From the NCBI GenBank assembly GCA_964383765.1, contig CAYLHT010000001.1:36998-100997 (forward strand): 64,000 nucleotides of DNA. The letters run 5' to 3'. Every line of letters starts with the position of its first letter. Position 1 is the first letter of the stretch. Made by a program: the position numbers and the translations under genes. The notes under the pieces are model-generated. The model saw only the letters and a list, made by a program, of their open reading frames with translations, did not search any database and was not told the DNA's origin. This document shows positions 1 through 62,245 of the stretch, piece after piece. The DNA comes from an uncultured Gammaproteobacteria bacterium (GTDB taxonomy: Bacteria; Patescibacteriota; Patescibacteriia; SBBC01; CAIJZX01).

Positions 1-1600
<1,600 letters not shown>

Positions 1601-5012: not shown

Positions 5013-5649
5013 GAACTTTCTTCATCTTTTTTCGCCATTCCGCAATGCCTTTATGATGCCCGCTCAACAATTCTTTCGGCACGCGTTTACCCTTAAACAC
5101 TTCTGGTCGAGTGTATTGTGGATATTCTAACACTCCCGGCTGGCTATGCGACTCATCAACTGACGATTCGTCTTTGCCCAACACACCGGGCAACAATCGT
5201 GTCACCGCATCCATCACGACCATAGCCGGTAATTCGCCGCCGGTCAGGACGTAGTTGCCGATGGAAATTTCTTCATCGACATAATCCACGACACGCTCGT
5301 CCACGCCCTCATACCGGGGACAAATAATGACAATCTGCTTGTATTTCGATAGTCGTTTTGCATCGGCCTGGGAAAATGTTTTTCCTTTGGCCGACATCAA
5401 CAAAATGCGTCGTCTTCCTTTCTTTGGTAGGGCTTTGAGGGCTTTGAAAATCGGTTCAACTTTCATCACCATGCCTACCCCACCGCCATACGGTCGGTCG
5501 TCGACACTACGATGTTTGTCAGATGTGAAATCGCGGAGATCGTGGAAGTGAAACGACACCAGTTTCTTTTTTTGAGCGCGTTTAATGATGCTCTCGTTCA
5601 GGTAAGCATCAAACATTTTTGGGAAAATGGTCAGTAGGTCGAAACGCAT
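4999..5649 (-). CDS. trmD: tRNA (guanine37-N1)-methyltransferase TrmD
   Basis: [16 protein letters not shown]...[13 protein letters not shown] aligns with the E. coli TrmD N-terminus and SPOUT knot. The start is set at the Met of MRFDLL (cat at 5647-5649) rather than the longer ORF start at 5697. Confidence 0.9.
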
Positions 5650-9546: not shown

Positions 9547-9660
9547 GAAGAGGAGAAGTTGGAAGTGAGAATTTGGAAGTTGGATAACTGAAATTTGAGC
9601 AACGGCACGATACCACAGGGCCTCAATGGTGTCAACGACCGATTAATCGACAGATTCGAG

Positions 9661-9698: not shown

Positions 9699-10898
9699 AT
9701 GGCTCGTCAATCCGATCAAGAATCTTCTGAGGGCGTCATTGTTAAACTCGTCACCAACCTCGTTCGGTTGGCGGTCTTGAATAACGCATCGGATATTCAC
9801 ATTGAGCCCGGTGAAGATAAAATTGGGATTCGTTTTCGCATTGACGGCGTCCTCCGGGAAGTTGAAAGCCATCCGATCAGCTTGCACGAACCATTGGTGG
9901 CGCGCATCAAGGTGCTGTCTAACCTGAATTTATCTGAACGCCGTAAGCCCCAGGATGGCCGGTTCCAGTTGAATGCTGACAACAAACAACTCGATATCCG
10001 GGTCTCGACCTTCCCGACAATTTTTGGCGAGAATGTTGAACTGCGCATCTTGAACAAAACCAACATTCTCCTCGGTTTACCGAGTTTAGGTTTTCAGCCC
10101 GACACTCTTGAGCAATTCAACGGGATGATTCACCAACCCTACGGCATTATTTTCGTGACCGGGCCAAATGGATCTGGGAAAACCACCACGCTGTACTCAA
10201 CCCTCAACACGATCAATACGCCGGACAAAGATATTGTGACGCTGGAAGACCCGGTTGAGTATCAATTGCCGCTGATTCGCCAAACCCAAGTTGACCCTGA
10301 TGTGGGCATGACGTTTGCCGCCGGCTTGCGGTCACGGCTGCGGCAAGACCCGGACGTCTTACTTGTGGGTGAAGTTCGTGACCCTGAAACTGCTTCGATT
10401 GCAGTCCGGGCGGCCCTGACTGGCCACTTGGTGTTAACGACGCTGCATACCAATGATTCCATCGGCGCCATCAATCGCCTAACGGATATGAACGTGGAAC
10501 GCGTGTTGATCGCGTCGGCCACGATCGGGATCCTGGCTCAACGTCTTGTCCGACTCCTGTGTACGACCTGCGCCGAAGCCTATGAAGCCTCAACCTCACT
10601 CAAACAGCAGTTAGCCTTGCCGACCGAAGAGAAGATTACGCTCAAGAAAGGGGTGGGCTGCGAAAACTGTGGGTACACCGGGTACATTGGTCGAACGGGA
10701 ATTTTTGAGATGTTGGTGCCAGATAAGAAAGTCCGGGCAATGATTACCGACGGCGCCAGCCACCAGGACATCAAAACCTATGCCGTTCGAGCGCTCGGCA
10801 TGCGTACCTTGCGCGATGATGGACTCCAAAAAGCTAAACAGGGCCTAACCAGCGTCGAAGAAGTCTTACGCGTGACCGTCGGAGACATTACTGAGTAG
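9699..10898 (+). CDS. pilB: type IV pilus / type II secretion assembly ATPase (GspE/PilB family, short N-terminus)
   Basis: Walker A GPNGSGKTTT, Asp box, His box TLHTND, and C-terminal tetracysteine CTTC...CENC typical of PilB-type ATPases. At 399 aa it lacks the long N-terminal domain. Confidence 0.8.
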   Translation: MARQSDQESSEGVIVKLVTNLVRLAVLNNASDIHIEPGEDKIGIRFRIDGVLREVESHPISLHEPLVARIKVLSNLNLSERRKPQDGRFQLNADNKQLDIRVSTFPTIFGENVELRILNKTNILLGLPSLGFQPDTLEQFNGMIHQPYGIIFVTGPNGSGKTTTLYSTLNTINTPDKDIVTLEDPVEYQLPLIRQTQVDPDVGMTFAAGLRSRLRQDPDVLLVGEVRDPETASIAVRAALTGHLVLTTLHTNDSIGAINRLTDMNVERVLIASATIGILAQRLVRLLCTTCAEAYEASTSLKQQLALPTEEKITLKKGVGCENCGYTGYIGRTGIFEMLVPDKKVRAMITDGASHQDIKTYAVRALGMRTLRDDGLQKAKQGLTSVEEVLRVTVGDITE

Positions 10899-11117: not shown

Positions 11118-12122
11118 GTGGAGGAAGTCATGCCGAAAAAGATTGCGGTCTGGCGGCACGATCGGAAGGACTTCGAGTATTTGACACGTGATTCGATTGA
11201 GGCTCGACGCCCCCCGATTGGCCGCGAAGATTATGGGGAACGTTGTTTCACCGGCTCGGTCGCCATCCAGCAGCCAGCCGGTCAGCGAGCAATCTTTCGG
11301 TGGTCGGACCATCTCGACCGGTTCGAACAGAGCGTCGCGGCCGACGCTATGGTCAAACGGCTTCCCTGTTCGCGGGAACTCCTGACCAACGTCGTCAGCG
11401 ATCTGGTCTGGATGAATGATCAACCCTACATCCGTTGCAGCATTGGAAGCGTCGGAGGGGTCCGGGTTTATGCACACGATCCCCAACCTGACTTCCATGT
11501 CTGTACCGAGGACATCGATCCGATCACTCGCACGTACCTTGGCCCGGACGTGTCCACCAAAGGTCTCCGGGTGTTGGTGACCGACTGGCGACGCGGGTTT
11601 CCCGATGCCGTTACCATGGCCAAGTCAGCCAGCAATTACCAGCGCAGCATCAATGCTAAGGATGAGGCCGTCCAGGCCGGGATGGATGATGGCGCCCTCG
11701 TCGATTCAACCGGCGACTACCTATCCGAAGCGTCGGTCGCGAACCTGATCCTGATCAAGGGTCAACGAGCTTTCCGACCGGATCGGCGGTGTGGAGCGCT
11801 GGACAGCATCACCCGTCGGACGGCTGAGCGACTGCTCAAAGACACCGAGCAGATTGAGACCGACCCAGCCCTAATCGGGCCGAGGCTCCTCGAGGAGGCG
11901 GATGAAATCATGGCCTGCGGCACGGCTATCGGTTGCATCCGGATTCGGGAGCTAGCCTGGCCTGCTAAGGGCGTTCACTGGATGCTCCGTCGTGACGAAG
12001 CAGATCAAGTGGCTCTCCGGATCGATCGGAAATACCTGGCCTTGATTCAGGGTCAAGTTCTGGGCTACGACAACTGGTTCACACCGATCGAGAGCATGCA
12101 CGCTCAGACGGTCAGGACCTGA
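11118..12122 (+). CDS. class IV aminotransferase (branched-chain amino-acid / D-amino-acid aminotransferase fold)
   Basis: SASNYQRSINAKDEAVQAG...EASVANLILIKG...GALDSITRRT matches the fold-type IV PLP enzyme pattern (E..s.N.f, G..GITR). The probable true start is ATG 11130 after GGAGGAA. The region is markedly GC-rich. Confidence 0.7.
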   Translation: MEEVMPKKIAVWRHDRKDFEYLTRDSIEARRPPIGREDYGERCFTGSVAIQQPAGQRAIFRWSDHLDRFEQSVAADAMVKRLPCSRELLTNVVSDLVWMNDQPYIRCSIGSVGGVRVYAHDPQPDFHVCTEDIDPITRTYLGPDVSTKGLRVLVTDWRRGFPDAVTMAKSASNYQRSINAKDEAVQAGMDDGALVDSTGDYLSEASVANLILIKGQRAFRPDRRCGALDSITRRTAERLLKDTEQIETDPALIGPRLLEEADEIMACGTAIGCIRIRELAWPAKGVHWMLRRDEADQVALRIDRKYLALIQGQVLGYDNWFTPIESMHAQTVRT

Positions 12123-12188: not shown

Positions 12189-12209
12189 CCCGTCAGAAAA
12201 CAAACACCC

Positions 12210-13196
12210 ATGCGAAAATTGTTCGTCGGATTTTTGGCCATCCTTGGGCTAAGCGCCCTGGTTTTTGCTGTGCCGGCCAAGGCCGCGACCAAGGTCCCTC
12301 GCAAGATTGACGGAGTGATGGTTGACCCAAAAAACGCTAATCCGTGGGTGACGGCGGTCATGATTGATAACCATCCGGCCGCCCGGCCACAATCAGGGAT
12401 GAGTAAAGCCTCAGTCATTTATGAGTCTTTAGCCGAAGGCGGCATCCCGCGGTTCATGGCGCTCTTCGTTGATTATTCAGTCAAAGTCTTCGGTCCGGTT
12501 CGATCGACTCGACCGTATTTTGTGCGTTACGCCGCGGAATACCCGGCGGCGATCGTCCACGCCGGCGGCAGTCCGGATGCCTTAGCGCTCATCCGCTCCC
12601 TTAAGCTCGGGAGCATCGAAGGGATTAAAGGAAAATTTGCGAAACTCTTCTACCGCGGCCCGGGCGGTGGTGTGCACGCCCTCTTCACGACCGGCCCAAA
12701 AGTTTGGACGGCCCTGAAAGCGCTGCGCTACGATCGGGCGACGCCGAAGTACCCAAGCTGGACCTTCGTGGATGAACCGGCGATAGCCGGCCGGGCAACC
12801 GGTAAACATGGTGCCATCATTGACCTGGGCGCAGGCAAACAGTACCAAATTCGGTTTGACTACGACCGCAAAACCAATACCTATAAACGCTTAACCGGTG
12901 GCCGACCCCAGATCGATAAGCTGACTAAACAACAACTGGCGCCAAAAAACGTAATTATCATTGTTGTTCCGAAGGAAAAAATCCTGGATCGCAAAGGCCG
13001 GCTTGATTTGCACACCGTCGGCCAAGATAAAGGCGTGCTCTTGAAAAACGGAAAATCAGTACCGATTGTTTGGAAAAAACCGGGCACGCGAACCCGCACC
13101 CAGTTTTTCACGACCGACGGAAAAGCAGCTGAACTGAATCGCGGTCAAACCTGGATTGTGGTCGTGCCGCGAACCCACAAGTATAATTTGTTCTAA
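12210..13196 (+). CDS. secreted DUF3048 (YerB-like) domain protein
   Basis: Signal peptide MRKLFVGFLAILGLSALVFAVPAKA; ESLAEGGIPRFMALF and HAGGSPDA blocks resemble the DUF3048 N/C domains. Confidence 0.55.
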   Translation: MRKLFVGFLAILGLSALVFAVPAKAATKVPRKIDGVMVDPKNANPWVTAVMIDNHPAARPQSGMSKASVIYESLAEGGIPRFMALFVDYSVKVFGPVRSTRPYFVRYAAEYPAAIVHAGGSPDALALIRSLKLGSIEGIKGKFAKLFYRGPGGGVHALFTTGPKVWTALKALRYDRATPKYPSWTFVDEPAIAGRATGKHGAIIDLGAGKQYQIRFDYDRKTNTYKRLTGGRPQIDKLTKQQLAPKNVIIIVVPKEKILDRKGRLDLHTVGQDKGVLLKNGKSVPIVWKKPGTRTRTQFFTTDGKAAELNRGQTWIVVVPRTHKYNLF

Positions 13197-48823: not shown

Positions 48824-50656
48824 ATGAACCCCCTGCTTAAGAATATTCTCATCTTTTTTGGCTCCATTCTCGTCCTGAGCTTCCTGTTTAGCTCAGTCAA
48901 TTTATCGTCCAATGGCGCCAAAACCGTCAGTCTCGGCCAGGTTATCCAGAAAATTAACGCTGACCAGGTCAAGACTGTCGATGTGAATGGTGACCAACTG
49001 AACATCACGCTGAAAGACAATTCAAAGCTGATTGCCCATAAGGAACCGACGGTTGATTGGTCAACTTTAGCGAAGAATTACGGTGTCGATCCACAAAAGC
49101 TGATCGCCGTAGCCGGGACGGTCAAAGACAACTCCAGCACCGTCTTCTGGCTCAACACGATCTTACCAATTGTTGTGCCATTGTTGTTCATTGGCGTGTT
49201 CTTCTGGCTGACGTTCCGTCAAGTCCAGGGCCAGAACAACCGCGCCTTGAGTTTTGGTCAAGTCGCGCAGCGCGAACCGGAGCAACCGACCAAGAAAAAA
49301 CCTGTGACATTCAAAGATGTGGCCGGCGCTAAGGAAGCCAAGGAAGAACTACAAGAGATTGTCGAGTTTTTGAAAAACCCAAAACGTTTTACTGATCTTG
49401 GTGCTCGGATTCCCAAGGGCGCCCTGTTAGTGGGTCCGCCCGGCACCGGCAAAACCCTACTAGCCAAAGCCATTGCTGGTGAAGCCGACGTACCGTTCTA
49501 CAACATCTCCGGTTCAGAATTCGTGGAGATGTTCGTGGGCGTTGGCGCCTCGCGGGTGCGTGATTTGTTCCGCCGCGCGAAGAAAACTGCGCCCAGCATC
49601 GTCTTCATCGATGAAATCGACGCTGTCGGCCGCCAACGCGGAGCCGGTCTCGGTGGCGGCCACGACGAGCGCGAACAAACTCTTAACCAGATCTTGGTCG
49701 AGATGGACGGCTTTGATACCGACACGCACGTGATCGTGATCGCCGCCACCAATCGCCCGGACATTCTTGATCCAGCTTTGTTGCGCCCCGGCCGTTTTGA
49801 CCGACGGGTGACAATTGATTTGCCGGACATCGGCGAACGGGAAGCGATTTTGAAAGTTCACGCCGTTGGGAAACCACTTGGTCAAGATGTGAACTTACGC
49901 CGTGTCGCCGAACGCACACCTGGCTTCTCCGGCGCCGACTTGTCGAACCTGCTAAACGAAGCCGCGATTTTGACCGCTCGCGACCGCCGCACCACGGTCA
50001 CGTTCAACGATTGTATCAACGCCATGGAAAAAGTTTTGCTCGGGCCCGAACGGCGGTCGAAAGTCATGAACGACGAAGAGAAAAAACTGACCGCTTTCCA
50101 CGAAGGTGGACACGCCGTCGTCGCCCATTTCTTACCGGACGCCGATCCCATCCAAAAAGTCTCGATTATTTCCCGCGGCCGAGCTGGTGGTTTCACCTTG
50201 AAAACGCCAACCGAGGATAAGAACTATCATACCCTCAAAGAATTCCAGGCCGACCTGGCAGTTATGCTGGCCGGTCAGCAAGCTGAACAGCAAACCTTCG
50301 GACAAGTCTCAACCGGCGCCAGTAGTGATCTCCAAAGTGCGACCCGGCTCGCCCGGCAGATCGTCACCCGCTTCGGCATGAGCGAGCTTGGCCCTCGGAC
50401 CTTCGGTCAATCCGAAGAAATGATTTTCCTGGGCCGCGAAATCCACGAGCAACGTGACTACTCAGAGAAAGTTGCGCAGCAAATTGACCAACAAATTGAC
50501 CATTTGTTAACCACCGCCCGCCAAACAGCCGCCGATATCCTGAAACACCACAAATCTCTCCTGCAGAAAATAGCCGACGAGCTGCTGATCAAGGAAACGA
50601 TCGAAAAAGAGGAATTCGAGGCCTTGGTTGGCCCGAAGCCAACTACTCGGGTCTAG
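48824..50656 (+). CDS. ftsH: ATP-dependent zinc metalloprotease FtsH
   Basis: N-terminal TM, AAA Walker [17 protein letters not shown], and zinc motif HEGGHAV. Confidence 0.95.
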
Positions 50657-50752
50657 CTCGGACCACGGAGCGATTAGACTGGTAGTGGGTTTTATGGTAT
50701 ACTCTAGCCCGTTCGATTAGTCCCGATACATCAACTCAAATCCAGCACGTTC

Positions 50753-51706
50753 ATGGCGTCGTTCTACCGACGGGAGGTACTCCAGCAAGCTTGGGCCATT
50801 ATTTGGCGGAAGAAGTATTTGTGGTTCATCGCCTTTTTCGGCGGCCTGGCTTCCTACGGGGGCGAAGTCAATTTTCTGTTCCGAAAATTTAATGCGGTCG
50901 CGACCTTCCAGTCGTACCTGGTCGCCATTCGCAAACTATTCGTTGAGGGGAAAGCCCAAACCTATCTCCATCAATTTACGCACGTTTTCCAACAGGCGCC
51001 CGGAGTAATCTTGGGCTATCTTGGCGTTGGCCTCGCGATCCTCGTGATCGGGCTCTGGTTGATGTTCGTGTCCCAAGGCGCGGTTATTCGCATTGTTGGT
51101 CGGTCACAAGAGAAGAAGTCTAGCGATTTTCTTGATGGCGTGGCCACCGGCGCGGAGAAATTTTGGGCAATTGTGCAGCTTAACATCATTGCTGTTCTAC
51201 TGGGATGGGCCGGGTGGATTATTGTGGCCGGCCTACCGGCGACCATTTATTTCCTGTCCGGTCAGGTAGCCTGGGCGGAAATCGCCCGAGTGGGGGCGGT
51301 GGTGTCGGTACTCTTGAGCGCTATTATCACGCTGGTCACCCAATATTCAACGGCAGCGGTGATCTTGCGAGGCCTCAGTCCGGTGCCGGCGTTAGCGGAT
51401 AGTTGGAAACTGTTCCGTCGCAATGTTGCGGTCAGCATCGAAATGGCATTGATCATTTTCCTGATTAATCTCGGGATCTTGGTTGTTTCGTTTGGAATCT
51501 TCGACGCCTTCGGTCTGTTCTTCTCGGCGGCCGGCTTGATTACACTCCTGGTCTTAATCGCGGTTGAGTTCGGTGCACTGAGTGCCTTCAACCTGTCGGC
51601 CTGGACAATTCTCTACCAGAAACTCGTGGCCGGCCGGGTCAACAGTAAAATCGGCGAGTGGACAACGCAGCTGGCGAGTTTCGCCAAGAACAAACAAACC
51701 ACCTAA
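50753..51706 (+). CDS. hypothetical polytopic membrane protein
   Basis: 317 aa with 6 or more TM helices. Confidence 0.45.
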   Translation: MASFYRREVLQQAWAIIWRKKYLWFIAFFGGLASYGGEVNFLFRKFNAVATFQSYLVAIRKLFVEGKAQTYLHQFTHVFQQAPGVILGYLGVGLAILVIGLWLMFVSQGAVIRIVGRSQEKKSSDFLDGVATGAEKFWAIVQLNIIAVLLGWAGWIIVAGLPATIYFLSGQVAWAEIARVGAVVSVLLSAIITLVTQYSTAAVILRGLSPVPALADSWKLFRRNVAVSIEMALIIFLINLGILVVSFGIFDAFGLFFSAAGLITLLVLIAVEFGALSAFNLSAWTILYQKLVAGRVNSKIGEWTTQLASFAKNKQTT

Positions 51707-51759
51707 CTTGAATTTGCCGAGTCGGAGTGGTAGAGTTCGGGCGGATTTACTGTAGCTGC

Positions 51760-51939
51760 GGGCAGGTAGCTCAGCTGGTTAGAGCAGTCGTCTTACCCGC
51801 CTGCCTAGCCGGCCTCTAGCTCAATGGCAGAGCGTCCGTCTTATACACGGATGGTTCCAGGTTCGAATCCTGGGAGGCCGACTAGGACGGCGGGCAGGTA
51901 CACGACCGGTCGATGGTTCGAATCCATCCCTGCCCACCA
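51760..51939 (+). tRNA. tRNA-Val(UAC)-like gene split by a 103-nt insert after anticodon nt 36 (exons 51760-51796 and 51900-51939)
   Basis: The 5' exon is GGGCAGG-TA-GCTCAGCTGGTTAGAGC-A-GTCGT-CTTAC. The 3' exon is AC-ACGAC-CGGTC-GATGG-TTCGAAT-CCATC-CCTGCCC-A-CCA. The acceptor stem has 7/7 bp, the anticodon stem 5/5 bp, and the reconstituted loop is CTTACAC. Confidence 0.5.
51810..51881 (+). tRNA. tRNA with anticodon UAU (tRNA-Ile2-like), embedded in the insert of the split tRNA-Val
   Basis: CGGCCTC-TA-GCTC-AATGGCA-GAGC-G-TCCGT-CTTATAC-ACGGA-TGGTT-CCAGG-TTCGAAT-CCTGG-GAGGCCG-A forms a perfect cloverleaf; no CCA is encoded. Confidence 0.7.
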
Positions 51940-52643
51940 TGAATATTCTGATCACCGGGGGTAGTAGTGGCATTGGGCAAGCGATTGCCCAAGCATGTGC
52001 TCAGGGCGGGCATGATATATTTTTGGTGGCGCAGGAGGTCGGGAAGCTTGAACGAGTTGCCAATGAATTGACCGCGGCGACGGGTCGGAAGGTCTTATCA
52101 ATGACTGCCGACGTGTCTGATCCGAAGCAAGTCGAGGCCATTCAGCAACGATGTCGGAAAGAAAAGTTTTCACCCGACGTGCTCGTGCTCAACGCCGGAA
52201 TTTGGCTGAGCGGCGGAATCATGGGCGTCAAACCTGAGGAATTCGATCAAATTATGCACGTCAACGTGGCGTCAATGTTTTATTTTATCAAAGCTTTCCG
52301 CGAAACACTCAAACGCAGTGTCTATCCACGCATCATCATCACCGGCTCAACCGCGGGACTCGAGGGCCATCACCGGAGTGGTGGTTCACTCTACAGCGTT
52401 AGCAAATGGGCGGTGCATGGTTTGACAGTCAATCTGCGCCAAGAATTAATGTCCGATAACATCGGCGTGACCCATATCGCTCCTGGGAGCGTGATGAGCG
52501 CGATGTGGGACGCTGATGAAGCTGAGCCGAAAAGAATGCTCGAAGCAGCTGATATTGGGAAAGTTGTCTCAGCACTACTGGAGTTGAGCCCGCAAGCCGT
52601 TGTCGAAGAAATCGTGATTCGGCCGATGGGTGGGAATATTTAA
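51939..52643 (+). CDS. SDR-family short-chain dehydrogenase/reductase
   Basis: TGGSSGIG cofactor motif, catalytic YSVSK (YxxxK). The ATG overlaps the last A of the upstream tRNA CCA. Confidence 0.85.
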   Translation: MNILITGGSSGIGQAIAQACAQGGHDIFLVAQEVGKLERVANELTAATGRKVLSMTADVSDPKQVEAIQQRCRKEKFSPDVLVLNAGIWLSGGIMGVKPEEFDQIMHVNVASMFYFIKAFRETLKRSVYPRIIITGSTAGLEGHHRSGGSLYSVSKWAVHGLTVNLRQELMSDNIGVTHIAPGSVMSAMWDADEAEPKRMLEAADIGKVVSALLELSPQAVVEEIVIRPMGGNI

Positions 52644-52652
52644 TCAACAGCT

Positions 52653-53282
52653 GTGACTACTCAAGTCACTCAATCCAAACTCTCCGTCCGCAAAGCCTTT
52701 CAGCGAATGTGGGTGGCGGGTACGCTGGGCGCGTTTTTCACGGCGATTGTTCGAACGATCCCGATCGACATTCAACGCTTACAGTCCGGGCCGGACGCCG
52801 GCTTGATTCTGGACCGGGCGCTGCGGTATGGGTATCTCCTGTGGTTGCTCAGCTACTTTTTCATCACCAATCTTCGTCTTGAACAAGGTGAACATCCATC
52901 CCGACGCGACTTGGTCTTTGATGTGATTCAGTCTGTGGCTGGGCTGAGTGCCGCATACGCCCTGGGATTCGTGTCGGAAACTCGAGGGTTCGGTCCCCAT
53001 GAATCCGCCGGAGCTATCATAAGTGCCAACCTCACCATTCTTAGTATTGCTCTCATTGCATTCTACCTGTTTCGATCAGAAGCTGACCGACGGATTCATC
53101 AGCTCCGATTTGTTGGCGCAATCCTAGCAGCTGCGTCCATCCTAACGGCCAGCGTGGTGACATCAACAATCTGGATGTTGACGAGCTCAGCCTTATTTCT
53201 CCTCGCGCTCTGGGTGACTCTGTGGCGATACATCCGATTGCGCCTGCGCCCAGAGTCACCAAGTCGAACCTCTACTCTTTGA
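52653..53282 (+). CDS. hypothetical membrane protein
   Basis: 209 aa with 5-6 TM helices. Confidence 0.4.
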   Translation: MTTQVTQSKLSVRKAFQRMWVAGTLGAFFTAIVRTIPIDIQRLQSGPDAGLILDRALRYGYLLWLLSYFFITNLRLEQGEHPSRRDLVFDVIQSVAGLSAAYALGFVSETRGFGPHESAGAIISANLTILSIALIAFYLFRSEADRRIHQLRFVGAILAAASILTASVVTSTIWMLTSSALFLLALWVTLWRYIRLRLRPESPSRTSTL

Positions 53283-53648
53283 GGGTTCCATCGCGGGCCA
53301 GAGATTGGATCGCGCCTGAGCGTGCTTGTGGTACACTTGGCTAGCCACCGTTCCGGCCTTTGACCGGGAAGGAGGTGATCCTCAGTGACGGCCGGAATTG
53401 CGGCTCGAAACTTGAATGGATCAACCTTTGAACGGAAAGGTGGTGGCCATGGACTTTACATGGCTGGCCTCGTTGCTCGGACTGTTCCGAGAGATCGGAA
53501 CGTTCGCCGCAGTCGAAGCCGATCCGGACGGACCCTGCGGTCCGAGCCGGCATTTCCCCGGCTAGTGGACGAAGGTCCAACTGCCGGTTCATCGCCTTGC
53601 GATTCAGTGGGTTCCCCCCTCCTGGATCTCGAGGGATCTATTGACCAG

Positions 53649-53676
53649 GCGCACGCAGGACGCGTGCGCCGTTTTT
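53649..53676 (+). terminator. strong rho-independent terminator closing an ORF-free GC-rich region
   Basis: GGCGCACGC-agga-GCGTGCGCC followed by GTTTTT. Confidence 0.65.
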
Positions 53677-53792
53677 CTAAAAAGTTTTTCTGGTGGGCGG
53701 TAGAGGATTCGCCCCTGCGGGGCCGGGGTCGCCACCGGCGACCCGTTGCTCGACGACTCGCAACCCTCTGACCTTTCTTTTTACCTCTCCGC

Positions 53793-53870
53793 TGGTGCGC
53801 GCATCTGGATTTGAACCAGAGACCTTCACAATGTCAATGTGACGCTCTAACCGGGCTGAGCTATGCGCGC
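53793..53870 (-). tRNA. tRNA-Val(GAC)
   Basis: Minus strand GCGCGCA-TA-GCTCAGCCCGGTTAGAGC-G-TCACA-TTGACAT-TGTGA-AGGTC-TCTGG-TTCAAAT-CCAGA-TGCGCGC-A-CCA. Confidence 0.9.
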
Positions 53871-53902
53871 ACAAGCAGAGAAATAAATATGTAAAGTTCT
53901 TC

Positions 53903-53971
53903 CTTCACAATGCCTGCCCTGAGCCTGCCGAAGGGTCAATGTGACGCTCTAACCAACTGAGCTAACCGCCC
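53903..53971 (-). pseudogene. tRNA-Val(GAC) 5' portion (acceptor to anticodon stem) with a 23-nt insert after nt 36 and no adjacent T-arm
   Basis: Minus strand GGGCGGT-TA-GCTCAGTTGGTTAGAGC-G-TCACA-TTGAC-[CCTTCGGCAGGCTCAGGGCAGGC]-AT-TGTGA-AGG, followed by non-tRNA sequence and then the complete tRNA-Val(GAC). A possible matching 3' remnant ...GGGGCGAATCCTCT-ACCGCCC-A-CCA lies at 53691-53725. Confidence 0.45.
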
Positions 53972-54062
53972 ATGAAAGCACAAGAGAAAATATCATATCT
54001 CCTCCATATCATCAAGCATACCAAAACACCCCGCCAGGCGGGGTGTTGTGTTTGAAAGCGAT

Positions 54063-57000
54063 TTAGCTTTCTAATCCGAGATCACGGCGATAGCGCTTGA
54101 GACCCACGAAGCCTACAATCATCAAGATCAAACCGATCATGAAGATCATGTAGTCGCGGAGACCAACGCCGGTCGTCGCCAGACCGAGGACTTGTGGAAC
54201 CTTGACGGTGACTTGGGCGGTTGCGCTGACGGGATCAACTCCGTTGGCGGCTACGACTGCAGTGTTCGTGTAGACGCCAGCTTTAACATCCGAACCAACT
54301 TTGACCGCATAGGTCAGCGTGGTCGAAGCGCCGGCGGCGAGCGTACCGAGCGACCATGACTTGGTGCTGTCGCCGCCATCCACAAAGGTGAAGCCGGTTG
54401 GTAGCGTGTCGGTCATAACCGTATCGGTCGCATCGCCGTCGCCGGTGTTGGTGATCGTGACCGTGTACGTGACCGTTCCGCCCGGATTAACCGTGGTTGG
54501 ATTCGCCGACTTGGCAATGGTGAGATTTGGCGATTTGGCGGCCAAGACTTGCGGGATCCGGACATCCACATTTGATGTGGCTGAGACCTGGGTGGTGTTG
54601 TCGCCCTTGGCCGTGGCGGTGTTGGTATGAATACCAGCGGCTGCGGCCGGACTAATGTTGACAGTGTAGGTCACCGTCACGGAAGCGCCTGGCGCGAGAT
54701 CACCGATGGACTGCGAGCTGGTGGTGCCGCCGCCGAGGAAGGTGAAGTCAGCCGGCAGGAGATCAGTCAGAATCACGTTGTGCGCCATATCGGTCGCGCT
54801 GGCGCTGTTGGTCACTACCACCGTGTAGATGACTGTCGTTCCCGGATTCGTGAAGGTGGTCAAGTTATTGACCTTGGTGATGGAGATGCTCGGCGCGGAA
54901 CTGACCGTGGTGCGGGCGCCGTCGCAGACTTGATCGGTTTGATCGGTGTCGAAGCAACCGGTGTTACTGATGACCGTGTTATTCGCAATCGGGCTGGCTA
55001 CCTTGACGACTAAACCAACCGTTCCGCTCGCGCCTGGCGCTTTGGTGCCGAGGTTCCAGGTGACCGTCTTGGTCGCGGCGTTGAACGTCCCGCCGTTGTC
55101 GGCCGAGACGAAGGTGGTGTTGGCCGGAATGACATCAGTAATGACGGCGTTGGTGGCCGTAGTATTTCCAGCGACCGTCCAGGCTAGCGAGTAGCTAATG
55201 TTTCCGCCGGCGTTAACTGTGGCCGGACCAGTCTTGTCGACCGTGATGGTCGTCAGATCCTTGGTGTTCGTGAAGACACAGATAATATTTTGATTATTGT
55301 GCAGGCTCAGGTCGACCGAAGTGGTTTGCGGTAGGTTCTGGTCGAGGTTACAGCTGACACTGGTGAAGTGGAAGCCAGTCTGCATGTTCTCAGAGATAGT
55401 GTAGGCGCCGGTGTCGAGCGTACGGCTTTGACCGGTGGCGATGTTTTGTTCGCCGCCTTGGATATTCCAGCTCCAGTTCGTCGCGCCGAAGACGTCGACT
55501 TTACCGTCGCCGTCCGTGTCGACATTCTTCAGGACCGTAATCGTGCCAGTTTGGCGGGTGTTCGTGAACGTACACACGACAGCGCTGCCGTTGCCGACGG
55601 TGATGCTACCGTCTTGACCCGCCGAGATCGGTTGACCGTTGTCGGTGCAGACGAGCGCGGGGGTGTAATCGCTCAACCCACCATTTTCCGAGACATAATA
55701 CGTTCCGGTGTCGACGGTATTCGATCCGGTCGTGCCATTCGCACCGACCACGAGTTGGCTATCAACTTCGTTGCCCCCAGCCGTGGTGCCGATCATCAAG
55801 GTCGTTGTTCCGGCGGTTCCAGACCAGACTTTCTTGAGTTCAATCGTACCTTGCTGACGTGTGTTCGTGAACGTGCAAACGACCGCGTGACCCTTCCCAA
55901 CGGTCAAAGAGTTATTGGCGCCGGGGGTGACGGCTTGACCATTGTCGGTGCAAACGAGTGCGGAATCGTAGTTCGTCAGTCCGCCTGTTTCTGACACATA
56001 AAATGTGCCAGTGCCAACGGTTTTGGTACCAGTTGTGCCGTTGCCTGAAACTGGTTGGCTAGCAATTTGGCTACCACCAGCCGTCGAGCCGATGTTCAGT
56101 GTGGTCGAACCGGCTGTACCAGACCAGATTTTCTTGAGTTCAATGGTACCCGTATCGCGGGTGTTCGTGACGGTGCAGGTTTTAACATCGCCGCCAGCCA
56201 CCGAACCGCTGCAGTCCGCGCTGTAGCCGGCGGTAAAGCCAGTCGGACCGCTTTCAGTGACATTGTAATTACCAACCGTAACCGTCTTGGTTGTACCGGC
56301 TTCTGAACCTGGGAAGGAGTTACCGCCGGTCGCAGTTACGCCGTTGATGGTCATGGTGAAGTCACCGGCGACGTTTTGACTGCCACCGCCATTGACGACA
56401 TGTTTTATGACCGTTAATTTCGGTGCAGCGACCGTAACCTTGGGTTGGGGTCGGGCTTGGGACGGCGCATTTTGATCATTCGTAATGTTGGCGACGTTGT
56501 GCACGATGGTTTCGCCGACCGGGAATGATCCGCCGGTCAGGGTGCCGTGGATAGTAATACTACCCGAGGCTCCCACCGCTAATGTCCCGATATTCCAGAC
56601 ATTGTTACCGCTGGATGGTGCTGGGGTTGAGCTCGTGAACACGAAGTGTGAATCGTAGGTCTCCGTGATCACGACGTTCGTTAAGTCGATGTTACCCGTG
56701 TTCGAGTAGTTCAAGGTGTAGGTTAAGGCATCGCCGGGATTGGCCGTGCTCTTATCAACGAGTTTTTCCAAGGCCGACTTCGGTTGGATCGGAACCGTGA
56801 TGGCGCTGTTCTGGTCGATGTTGTAGTGGAAGCTTGAACCAGACTGGTCAAGCACGGTGTAGAGCAAGTCTTGGTTACCGGCGGCTAAGGCGCGGAAGTG
56901 GAAGTCCGAGTTGACGGTGTTGCCTTCGTTGGTGGCGTAAATATCATTTTCGGTATTGCCATCACTGTAGGCCGTCATCACCGATTCGAGTTGCACGCCC

Positions 57001-61736: not shown

Positions 61737-61744
61737 CTAAAAAA

Positions 61745-62240
61745 ACACCCGGTCTCGGAGTCGTGTCGAGGATTATCCATCCAGGATGCACGACCCGAGG
61801 CCGGGGTTGGTGGAGCGACGCGCGAATGCCCGGAGAGCCGGGTAGGCTGTTATCCGTGCAAGCGCCAGTGGCGCTGCAATACGGGAGCCTTGAGCCTCGG
61901 CGATGGGCGCCGCCGCGAATGCGGCGGTCTAGTGCGCGGTATCAACTTGCGCGTGAGCGAGCCCAACGACATCGTCGTTGTGTTCCCTATTCGAGGGAAC
62001 CTATCGGTGTTTTGGGTGAATCTCAATTCACCGACTGGCTCTTGCGGCCTCACGCCGCGGCGGTACTCTTCTTCATGGCGACCTCCATGGTTGGCCAGAA
62101 AGCGGGCGCACTCCCAGGGTTGGGACTGCCCCGACAGTGAAGACTTTTTCAAGATGCCCGAGCAGTATACACCCTTTTCGGATTTTGTCAAGACGGGCTT
62201 GAAAATAATGCCCAAGTCAGCTATCCTTGCCAGGCAATTT
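61745..62240 (+). other. GC-rich, hairpin-dense, ORF-poor block between tRNA-Ala and tRNA-Phe; unassigned structured RNA candidate
   Basis: Contains the hairpins CCCGGTCTCGG...CCGAGGCCGGG (with inner GTCGTG/CACGAC), GCGCC-agt-GGCGC and CCGCCGC-gaat-GCGGCGG, plus the 12-mer CCGGGTAGGCTG and CTTGAGCC seen in bacterial RNase P RNA. The only ORFs here are low-complexity or span the tRNA. Confidence 0.25.
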
Positions 62241-62245
62241 TGATC

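Follow-up and report, generated by a model that had tools for sequence, protein, structure and literature searches.

An intact tRNA-Val(GAC) gene nested within the pieces of another in a patescibacterial genome, a probable scar of tRNA gene replacement

The stretch of DNA analyzed here (64,000 nt, hereafter the window) contains two loci, at which the pieces of one tRNA gene surround an intact one, and tRNA relics were found within the window only at these two places. At locus 2, a complete ancestral tRNA-Val(GAC) gene is present on the minus strand, between 53971 and 53691, in the form of four pieces separated by three inserts, one each in the anticodon, variable and T loops (Table 1). The joined pieces are identical at 75/75 positions to the uninterrupted tRNA-Val(GAC) of the relative L002, and hence they do not reflect a chance resemblance; the sole difference from this orthologue is the absence of T54-T55. 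The span 53935-53971, which overlaps the first piece, was identical to the L002 gene at 37/37 positions (BLAST), and the fourth piece at 21/21 positions, while each piece of the outer tRNA-Val and the outer tRNA-Ile occurred only once in the window (BLAST). The outer tRNA-Val pieces carry no substitutions despite the three insertions, and all stems of the cloverleaf are intact.

Table 1. Positions of the tRNA gene pieces, inserts and promoter-like hexamers at the two loci of the window.
Feature	Position	Strand	Description
Outer tRNA-Ile(TAT), 5' part, to A35	51760..51795	+	35/36 bases identical to L001
Locus 1 insert, 103 nt	51796..51898	+	Arm CCCGCCTGCCTAGC, inner tRNA-Ile(TAT) at 51810-51882, arm CTAGGACGGCGGG and CAGG tail
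Outer tRNA-Ile(TAT), 3' part, T36 to CCA	51899..51939	+	41/41 identical to L001
Outer tRNA-Val(GAC), piece 4, CGAATCCTCTACCGCCCACCA	53691..53711	-	T loop from C56, T-stem 3' strand, acceptor 3' strand, A73, CCA
Insert C (E53), 53-nt three-hairpin element	53712..53764	-	T loop, replaces T54-T55
Outer tRNA-Val(GAC), piece 3, TCAGAGG	53765..53771	-	End of variable loop and T-stem 5' strand
Insert B, 130-nt cassette	53772..53901	-	Variable loop; AAGG at both ends
Inner intact tRNA-Val(GAC), GCGCGCA type, encoded CCA	53793..53870	-	ARAGORN; Rfam tRNA 70 bits
Outer tRNA-Val(GAC), piece 2, CATTGTGAAGG	53902..53912	-	C36 to variable loop
Insert A, 23-nt hairpin, CCCTTCGGCAGGCTCAGGGCAGG	53913..53935	-	Position 35/36, anticodon loop
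Outer tRNA-Val(GAC), piece 1, GGGCGGTTAGCTCAGTTGGTTAGAGCGTCACATTGA	53936..53971	-	Acceptor 5' strand, D arm, anticodon stem 5' strand, loop to A35
Weak promoter-like hexamers, TTGATG-17 nt-TATTTT	53987..54015	-	15 nt upstream of the outer tRNA 5' end

The sequence-only reading, an earlier annotation of this DNA, had described a 5' tRNA portion, GGGCGGT...CATTGAC, on the minus strand, and this portion was found at 53971-53935. As it had also described, a 23-nt insert follows and the tRNA then resumes, with the sequence ATTGTGAAGG. The complete tRNA-Val(GAC) that it placed about 30 nt further lies 31 nt away, a 20-nt exact match confirms that the inner and outer copies share identical D and anticodon arms, and the sequence end ...GGGGCGAATCCTCTACCGCCCACCA was located at 53691. 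Other parts of that description have to be revised. The outer copy, which was thought to have no T-arm, possesses one, but its halves, TCAGAGG and CGAATCCTCT (53711-53702), are split by the structured insert C, and the supposed degenerate T-loop GGCGAAT is the junction of this insert with the T loop. The inner tRNA-Val, which had been placed relative to the anticodon-loop break, does not lie within that insert but in a separate one. Since this tRNA-bearing insert is located in the variable loop, the statement that both loci were broken by a tRNA after nucleotide 36 does not hold for locus 2. Owing to a C/C ambiguity, insert A itself could be placed at 35/36 (CCC...CAGG) or at 36/37, so that a break after nucleotide 36 is possible, but the 35/36 register agrees with locus 1 and with the relatives.

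Insert A consists of a hairpin only, with no tRNA inside; it folds with a closing helix CCCU/AGGG and a CAGG tail, and belongs to a 5'-CCC...GGG-CAGG-3' hairpin family. In insert B, the inner tRNA is preceded by a leader (53901-53871) and followed by a trailer (53792-53772), and nothing is present besides the tRNA and these arms. The leader and trailer are mutually complementary (duplex of -18.2 kcal/mol, z = -3.6), and their helix is also present in the MFE fold. Except for the ambiguous AAGG that bounds insert B, no target-site duplication was found at the insert junctions, and no common core of the two window junctions was detected by eye. The inner tRNA-Val is presumed to be the working gene, because it is the sole intact tRNA-Val(GAC) at locus 2. 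The relative L008 has an inner tRNA-Val of exactly the same sequence (100% identity), although the neighboring protein is only 52% identical, while a search of viral contigs with the window gene gave no match. With T54-T55 lost to the T-loop insert, and with GGTTCGAAT not restored by any choice of boundaries for this insert, the outer copy can no longer give a canonical tRNA, and we regard it as a relic.

At locus 1, the joined outer pieces are identical at 76/77 positions to the intact tRNA-Ile(TAT) of L001. This outer gene is split between A35 and T36, that is, within the anticodon (TA/T), and the excision of the insert would restore it (76/77). The inner and outer tRNA-Ile(TAT) are different genes. 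In the fold of the insert its arms extend the acceptor stem of the inner tRNA, and the duplex they form has an energy of -25 kcal/mol (z = -3.5). An assignment of the outer gene as tRNA-Val(TAC) broken after nucleotide 36 was ruled out, as the comparison with L001 shows a tRNA-Ile(TAT) broken at 35/36. A "minihelix" in which GGGCAGG, located before the 3' half at locus 1, would pair with CCTGCCC was also dropped, as it is not conserved in L005 or L007.

The insertions are precise, so that their removal restores the exact tRNA sequence at the D-loop, anticodon-loop and variable-loop sites. This precision, together with the reassembly of the exons at locus 1, the lack of accumulated substitutions in the outer pieces and the fact that every insert closes on itself, would also be consistent with a functional outer gene. 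The inserts would then be a new kind of bacterial tRNA intervening sequence, handled by a protein endonuclease and a ligase, which would either be excised or have the tRNA halves joined in trans, and each transcript would give two tRNAs. In the split tRNAs of Nanoarchaeum GC-rich complementary arms are located next to the break, and the GC-rich complementary arms that adjoin the break here resemble them. The window inserts also share with archaeal multi-intron and split tRNAs of Thermoproteales and Nanoarchaeum the character of short structured inserts in D, anticodon, variable and T loops (PMC4090602, PMC4033280). However, the archaeal genes contain bulge–helix–bulge (BHB) motifs, are spliced by EndA and a ligase, and are the sole genes for their tRNAs (PMC4090602, PMC4033280), while here the host is bacterial, there is an intact isoacceptor in every case, and truncation has affected many of the outer copies. 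By manual inspection, no BHB motif (3-nt bulge, 4-bp helix, 3-nt bulge) could be drawn at the Ile 35/36 junction or at one D-loop junction; here 0-1 nt separate the 5' junction from the start of the insert helix, and 4-5 nt lie between the end of this helix and the 3' junction. Removal of the inserts would not leave a sole canonical gene either, as the outer gene of locus 2 is devoid of T54-T55 and an intact isoacceptor lies inside both loci.

The position of the break is itself a proven intron site, because group I introns have been described at 35/36 of tRNA genes in Patescibacteria (Nakagawa et al. 2026, PMC13011429). The window inserts are similar to these introns in the phylum-level identity of the host, in the unusual site and in ending with G. 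On the other hand, the group I introns are full-size self-splicing ribozymes following U, according to the rule that U ends the 5' exon and G ends the intron (PMC13011429), while the inserts described here are 23-130 nt long, follow A, and hold a tRNA or a hairpin. The 5' pieces end at A35 (CTTA and TTGA), the inserts end with CAGG, and no P3-P9 catalytic core was found by Rfam matching. More generally, the Rfam search of window positions 50500-55000 (E <= 5) and of L002, L005, L007 and L008 (E <= 0.5) gave only tRNA and sub-threshold noise, and no group I intron, ribozyme, tmRNA or other Rfam family was detected in the inserts at these permissive thresholds. A sub-threshold match to YrlA in L005 reflects tRNA-likeness. 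Pfam matching of the principal ORFs between ~36.9 and 63.7 kb gave no splicing endonuclease or RNA ligase. The outer copy is also redundant, as an intact isoacceptor is always present, and its homologues in L005, L007 and L008 are truncated beyond repair. Because insert C is not cleanly excisable, no known splice signal is present and the copies in relatives are broken, we consider functional splicing of the outer genes very unlikely; if any outer copy were spliced, it would be the first case of tRNA splicing other than by group I introns in bacteria. Bacterial 23S rRNA genes contain intervening sequences, which are hairpin inserts in loops that are cut by RNase III, and the fragmented rRNA is functional. 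The inserts described here are similarly hairpin-shaped and located in loops of genes for structured RNAs, but, unlike the fragmented rRNA, a tRNA nicked in the anticodon or deprived of T54-T55 would not work.

The window is chromosomal, with genes for 16S rRNA, FtsH, a short-chain dehydrogenase, a DUF11 surface protein, a pseudouridine synthase and a copper ATPase. Its own proteins had no exact match in the records, and the sole named homologues of a neighboring 317-aa membrane protein come from MAGs of Candidatus Kerfeldbacteria and Kuenenbacteria, which places the organism among Patescibacteria. The syntenic contigs of relatives were fetched using this 317-aa protein as an anchor, and the search of genome contigs with it gave one short contig, L001. 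A homologue of a 209-aa protein (P0021, contig L018) was not syntenic. In the relatives the arrangement ranges from plain tandem Ile-Val genes through two- and three-layer nests. The more distant relatives L015 and L017 (42% and 45% protein identity) have a plain tandem of tRNA-Ile(TAT) and tRNA-Val(GAC) with no fragments, which, in view of the comparison of these loci, is likely the ancestral state, and in L002 both genes are intact. The fragment-free loci of L015 and L017 and the intact genes of L002 thus indicate that the window inserts are derived. The sequence-only reading had named a simple single tRNA-Val in relatives as an observation that would speak against it. Such a gene is indeed present in L002, L015 and L017, but the fragments align perfectly to it, which argues that the uninterrupted tRNA-Val is ancestral and the inserts were acquired later.

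The other relatives contain nests in various stages of disruption. L001 has an intact G-type Ile gene, then a degenerate Ile-like copy with the 53-nt element E53 in its T loop, and then Val. In L005, there is an Ile nest like that of the window, with the break at 35/36 and the arms CCCGCA.../...TGCGGG-ACAGG, but the 5' and 3' parts of the outer Ile neither match nor pair, and further inserts, including E53, are present. In L007, a 5' Ile fragment with a D-loop hairpin is followed by an intact Ile gene and by two successive 3' halves starting from T36. The same relative has a three-layer Val(GAC) nest, in which a copy of the GCGCGCA type, which is intact in the window, is cut at 35/36 by another intact copy; both the middle and outer copies are truncated, and the middle one is devoid of CATTG. 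In L008, the outer Val carries a D-loop hairpin and most of its 3' half is gone, with positions 37-62 missing. Overall, the same architecture was found in L005, L007 and L008 for Ile, Val(GAC), Val(TAC), Leu, Ala, Phe and Lys. At the Leu, Val(TAC), Ala, Phe and Lys loci, an intact isoacceptor is preceded by 5' fragments, followed by 3' fragments, or both, and small hairpins are present within the loops of the fragments. Many of the outer copies in these three relatives are truncated or mismatched and hence dead, and in every case an intact isoacceptor is located inside or adjoining them. The proposal of the sequence-only reading that the nesting does not result from random decay is supported by the recurrence of precise insertions at 35/36 in Ile and Val genes of several relatives, where the broken copy is always paired with an intact isoacceptor.

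The comparison of the inserts showed that some of them belong to families. The hairpin family has the form 5'-CCC(C)GC(A)CC ... GG(T)RCGGG(G)-CAGG-3', and its members, with or without a tRNA in the hairpin loop, occupy D loops or the 35/36 site of various tRNAs in several genomes. Hairpins related to insert A were found in D and anticodon loops of tRNAs in L005, L007 and L008, and hairpins of ~42 nt with the same sequence recur in the D loops of more than one tRNA and in more than one genome. The closing helices or arms covary, with CCCGCC/GGCGGG in the window, CCCGCA/TGCGGG in L005 and CTCGCC/GGCGAG in L007. E53 has the same three hairpins in four copies of divergent sequence, from which a covariance model, R1, was built. 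This model finds six copies, one in the window (79 bits), one in L001 and four in L005, including two that were outside model building (E = 7e-7 and 2.5e-4), and all six are located in T loops of broken tRNAs (Val, two Ile types, Lys and Ala). A search for the E53 core in a metagenome collection gave four matches, all of them unrelated and mostly in coding contexts, which were judged to be chance, and hence E53 was not found in that collection.

The third kind of insert, the tRNA flanked by complementary arms, is also recurrent. Thirteen intact tRNAs, all at loci bearing fragments, are flanked by leader–trailer duplexes of -13 to -31 kcal/mol (z <= -3.1), which often include the CCA end; no strong leader–trailer duplex was found at fragment-free tRNA loci, and several intact tRNAs near fragments also have none. 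The arm sequences differ between tRNA types and travel with the type, for example the TTTTCCCT/AGGGAAAA arms, which accompany the GCGCGCA-type Val in both L007 and L008, and the inverted repeats are unique to each tRNA and often perfect. Hence, the cassette arms are not the inverted repeats of one transposon. In comparison with MITE- or REP-like elements, the inserts have a palindromic body and occur in multiple copies (several CCC...GGG-CAGG hairpins in L007 and L008, and six E53). On the other side of this comparison, there is no target-site duplication, the copies are located only in tRNA loops, the arms differ between cassettes, and the window contains just two inserts of the hairpin family. 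The CCC...GGG-CAGG hairpins, the 53-nt T-loop element and the helix-flanked tRNA cassettes of this clade of Patescibacteria may be small elements of a kind not described before, with tRNA loops as their precise insertion sites. They might even act at the RNA level, as intervening sequences that are excised or whose flanking halves are joined, in which case at least those outer genes that can be fully reconstructed, such as the one at locus 1, would still be functional, and one transcript would give two tRNAs; we regard this reading as very unlikely.

Some of these features could also be explained without any mobile element, if the nests arose from local errors of replication or repair at hairpin-rich tRNA DNA. 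The routes could include partial tandem duplication, fold-back or template-switch events extending the acceptor-stem palindrome, and gene conversion between paralogues. Partial tandem duplication predicts fragments identical to the adjoining intact gene, and such fragments are present at the Lys and Phe loci of L008 and the Ala and Lys loci of L005. The extension of a palindrome from the local leader would predict flanking inverted repeats that are tRNA-specific and often perfect, as is the case. In L005, perfect 20-nt palindromes are found at sites containing CCTGC, and in the nest of L007 the innermost Val is of the same type as the outermost, which would also agree with a local origin. However, the inner gene is not a simple duplicate of the outer one at either window locus, since the two have different acceptor stems and T arms. 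Additionally, the inner Val and its arm type are common to the distantly related window, L007 and L008, but absent from the closer L001, L002 and L005. The ~42-nt hairpins of the same sequence in different tRNAs and genomes are not expected from local errors, and neither is the presence of E53 in T loops of four different tRNA types. Hence, the foreign-type inner genes, the shared hairpins and the spread of E53 point to dispersal rather than generation in situ, and we consider the local routes, taken jointly, unlikely.

As tRNA genes are the usual integration sites of integrative elements, which commonly leave tRNA gene fragments (van der Gulik et al. 2023, PMC9897764), the pieces could also be attL and attR remnants of an island or prophage that was integrated by a tyrosine integrase into a tRNA gene and later deleted. 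The window loci resemble such fragments in that partial, non-canonical tRNA sequence is present beside a canonical gene. L002 even has a typical 21-nt repeat of the Val 3' end, CGAATCCTCTACCGCCCACCA, ~105 nt downstream of its tRNA-Val. The fragments described in PMC9897764 are, however, duplicated 3' (att) segments at island ends, while in the window the old gene is split once, its pieces are unduplicated and it encloses a new gene. The 5' fragment is located upstream of a self-consistent complete gene, and no hybrid is formed. There is also no direct repeat of a tRNA segment at the junctions, and by eye they share no core. The Pfam search of the 20 principal ORFs between ~36.9 and 63.7 kb gave no integrase, recombinase, transposase or reverse transcriptase. 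The integrase attB-like targeting suggested by the earlier annotation is likewise not supported at locus 2, as neither an integrase or transposase among the searched ORFs, nor an att-type tRNA duplication, nor a common core was found. The classical att-remnant explanation is thus largely refuted for locus 2, and we regard it as highly improbable.

A closer parallel is the tRNA-dependent lysogeny of actinobacteriophages, for which it was shown experimentally that the phage breaks a host tRNA gene and complements it with its own isoacceptor (Guerrero-Bustamante and Hatfull 2024, PMC10865867). As in that system, the window inserts break an essential host tRNA gene without rebuilding it, and they supply the isoacceptor, since a Val(GAC) is found inside a Val(GAC) and an Ile(TAT) inside an Ile(TAT). 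On the other hand, tRNA-dependent lysogeny involves a whole prophage with a tyrosine integrase and a common core of ~10 bp (PMC10865867), while the window inserts are 103-130 nt long and contain only a tRNA and complementary arms, with no integration machinery of their own and no core, and their layers are up to three deep in the clade. In full-text searches of a literature collection, neither isoacceptor tRNA genes nested in one another nor mini-inserts specific for tRNA loops were found to have been described in bacteria.

Taken together, the nested arrangement is a solid observation, and its evolutionary interpretation is well supported. We interpret locus 2 as the scar of a tRNA gene replacement, resulting from a recurrent insertion of isoacceptor cassettes, with the outer copy as a co-transcribed relic, and assign this interpretation a probability of about 0.7. 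According to it, the ancestral GGGCGGT-type tRNA-Val(GAC) would have taken three precise loop insertions, among which the 130-nt cassette, carrying the GCGCGCA-type Val into a loop of the resident isoacceptor, would have killed and replaced the resident gene. The old pieces would persist as leader and trailer, gain further small inserts and deletions, and finally be lost. An insertion into a single-copy essential tRNA gene by the elements of this clade would survive only if the same isoacceptor were supplied, and such a survival filter would explain why the inner and outer genes share the anticodon. Hairpins without cargo would survive only in copies that are already dead.

The expression of the inner gene would then depend on its relic. 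The promoter scan found no sigma-70 site at the locus; the weak TTGATG/TATTTT pair, read by eye, matches the consensus at 8/12 positions, below the threshold of that scan, and similar hexamers were seen by eye at the same position upstream of tRNA-Val(GAC) in L001, L002 and L005. No such pair was seen by eye in the leader of the inner tRNA. The location of the hexamers upstream of the outer 5' end, with none in the inner leader, suggests that the inner Val may be transcribed from the promoter of the old gene through the outer 5' piece. It would be freed by ordinary processing of the 5' and 3' ends, and the long leader–trailer helix may serve as an additional processing site.

Several observations are not easily reconciled with the replacement scar. 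The absence of substitutions in the outer pieces could also mean purifying selection on the outer exons. Moreover, none of the outer stems is disrupted, and each insert forms a closed structure of its own, in the manner of introns or expansion segments. The arms adjoining the inner tRNAs covary, which implies that a helix, of RNA or DNA, is under selection; a pure scar would have no need of one. There is also no recombinase, transposase or reverse transcriptase among the ORFs searched (~36.9-63.7 kb), and no core. Models of crossover by a serine or a tyrosine recombinase were rejected, as no dinucleotide or core fits both junctions.

If the replacement scenario is correct, it represents a mode of tRNA gene turnover in ultra-small bacteria, in which an insert both splits the resident gene and supplies the substitute for it, repeatedly and in up to three layers. 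It would extend the disrupt-and-complement logic of phages to minimal cassettes of ~100 nt, in an iterated form. The comparison of the clade also brings to light at least two families of small structured inserts, which are strikingly specific for tRNA loops. For annotation these loci are a hazard, as tRNA finders report the inner gene only, and the outer pieces can be mistaken for introns, pseudogenes or att sites.

The carrier of the cassettes could have been a small integrative element with its own isoacceptor, since decayed and similar to one seen in L008, or the insertions could result from a loop-targeting process. A possible vehicle and a possible driver are present in relatives; neither is present in the window, and hence any mechanism of insertion is only a proposal. 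The Ala nest of L005 contains an ORF for a GIY-YIG nuclease, which has no counterpart in the window, and a homing endonuclease of this type as the driver of insertion is a possible lead only. In L008, a 2.6-kb element is inserted after A73 of the host tRNA-Lys(CTT); it encodes a large serine recombinase and a tRNA-Lys(CTT) of its own, has long inverted repeats, and is possibly a live vehicle for the cassettes.

The window was examined together with contigs of related Patescibacteria-like genomes (L002, L005, L007 and L008). The apparently invading tRNAs, which lie inside other tRNA copies, have in common the acceptor stem GCGCGC and the T-arm sequence CTGGTTCRARTCCAG; these are found in the tRNA-Val of the window and of L008, in the middle tRNA-Val of a nest in L007, and in the tRNA-Ile of L007. 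The D and anticodon arms of these tRNAs are nevertheless of the host type, so that the invading tRNAs look as if their top half had been swapped and their bottom half kept.

The L007 nest consists of three layers. The outermost is a GGGTTCG-type copy with two D-loop hairpins, which contains a GCGCGCA-type copy broken at the anticodon-loop position 35/36, and the latter contains an intact GGGTTCG-type copy located between TCCCGCACTTTCTGGT and ACCAGAAAGCGCGGGA. In L007, the GCGCGCA-type tRNA-Val, which acts as the invader at the window locus, has in its turn been invaded.

Features of the window and of related contigs
Feature	Location	Strand	Pfam E
GCGCGC-stem tRNAs	window 53793-53870	-	
	L008 3801-3878; L007 9161-9237 and 11107-11141		
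Three-layer tRNA-Val(GAC) nest	L007 10981-11330		
2.6-kb element with large serine recombinase gene	L008 6992-9576		
GIY-YIG nuclease ORF, 80 aa	L005 11701-11943		1.4e-16
20-nt near-perfect palindrome CCTGCCTRCCGGCAGGCAGG	L005 about 5292-5311, 12201-12220, 12558-12577 and 12701-12720		
Structured element GGGYAGRAGCRAG...TTGCCAGYGRCA...CGCTRCCC	L002 about 10146-10216; L005 about 11258-11325 and 12523-12603		
GC-rich stretch, about 400 nt, downstream of nested Val locus	window 53283-53690		
GC-rich, highly self-complementary spacer, ~500 nt, tRNA-Ala/tRNA-Phe interval	window 61738-62245		
Bacterial 16S rRNA gene, incomplete at window edge	window 1-1600	-	

The 2.6-kb L008 element is inserted after A73 of the host tRNA-Lys(CTT), the displaced end of which, GGTCACCA, is found at about 9566-9576. 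The recombinase gene of the element is enclosed by a 103-nt perfect inverted repeat, and a 70-nt inverted repeat encloses an ORF and a second tRNA-Lys(CTT), which shares 85% identity with that of the host. The GIY-YIG ORF of L005 is located within a nested tRNA-Ala locus, with a copy of the Ala 5′ end (GGGCCCTTAG) on either side, and it may be a homing-endonuclease-like driver; no homologue of this ORF was found in the window.

Smaller inserts were also observed. The palindrome occupies four insertion sites in L005 without duplication; three of these sites belong to broken tRNA copies, where they lie on the 3′ strand of the T stem. The structured element common to L002 and L005, which precedes displaced T-loop 3′ fragments and is also present in a D loop, is a putative third insert family.

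In the window, the spacer between tRNA-Ala and tRNA-Phe contained no Rfam match, tRNA relic or copy of E53, the 53-nt three-hairpin insert of T loops in broken tRNA copies. The stretch downstream of the nested Val locus contained no convincing ORF or Rfam match; a strong hairpin at 53648-53670 looks like a plus-strand terminator. The 1600 nt of the 16S rRNA gene span model positions 1-1488, which is about 110 nt above expectation, and this surplus may reflect the type of insertion that has been described for the rRNA of Patescibacteria.
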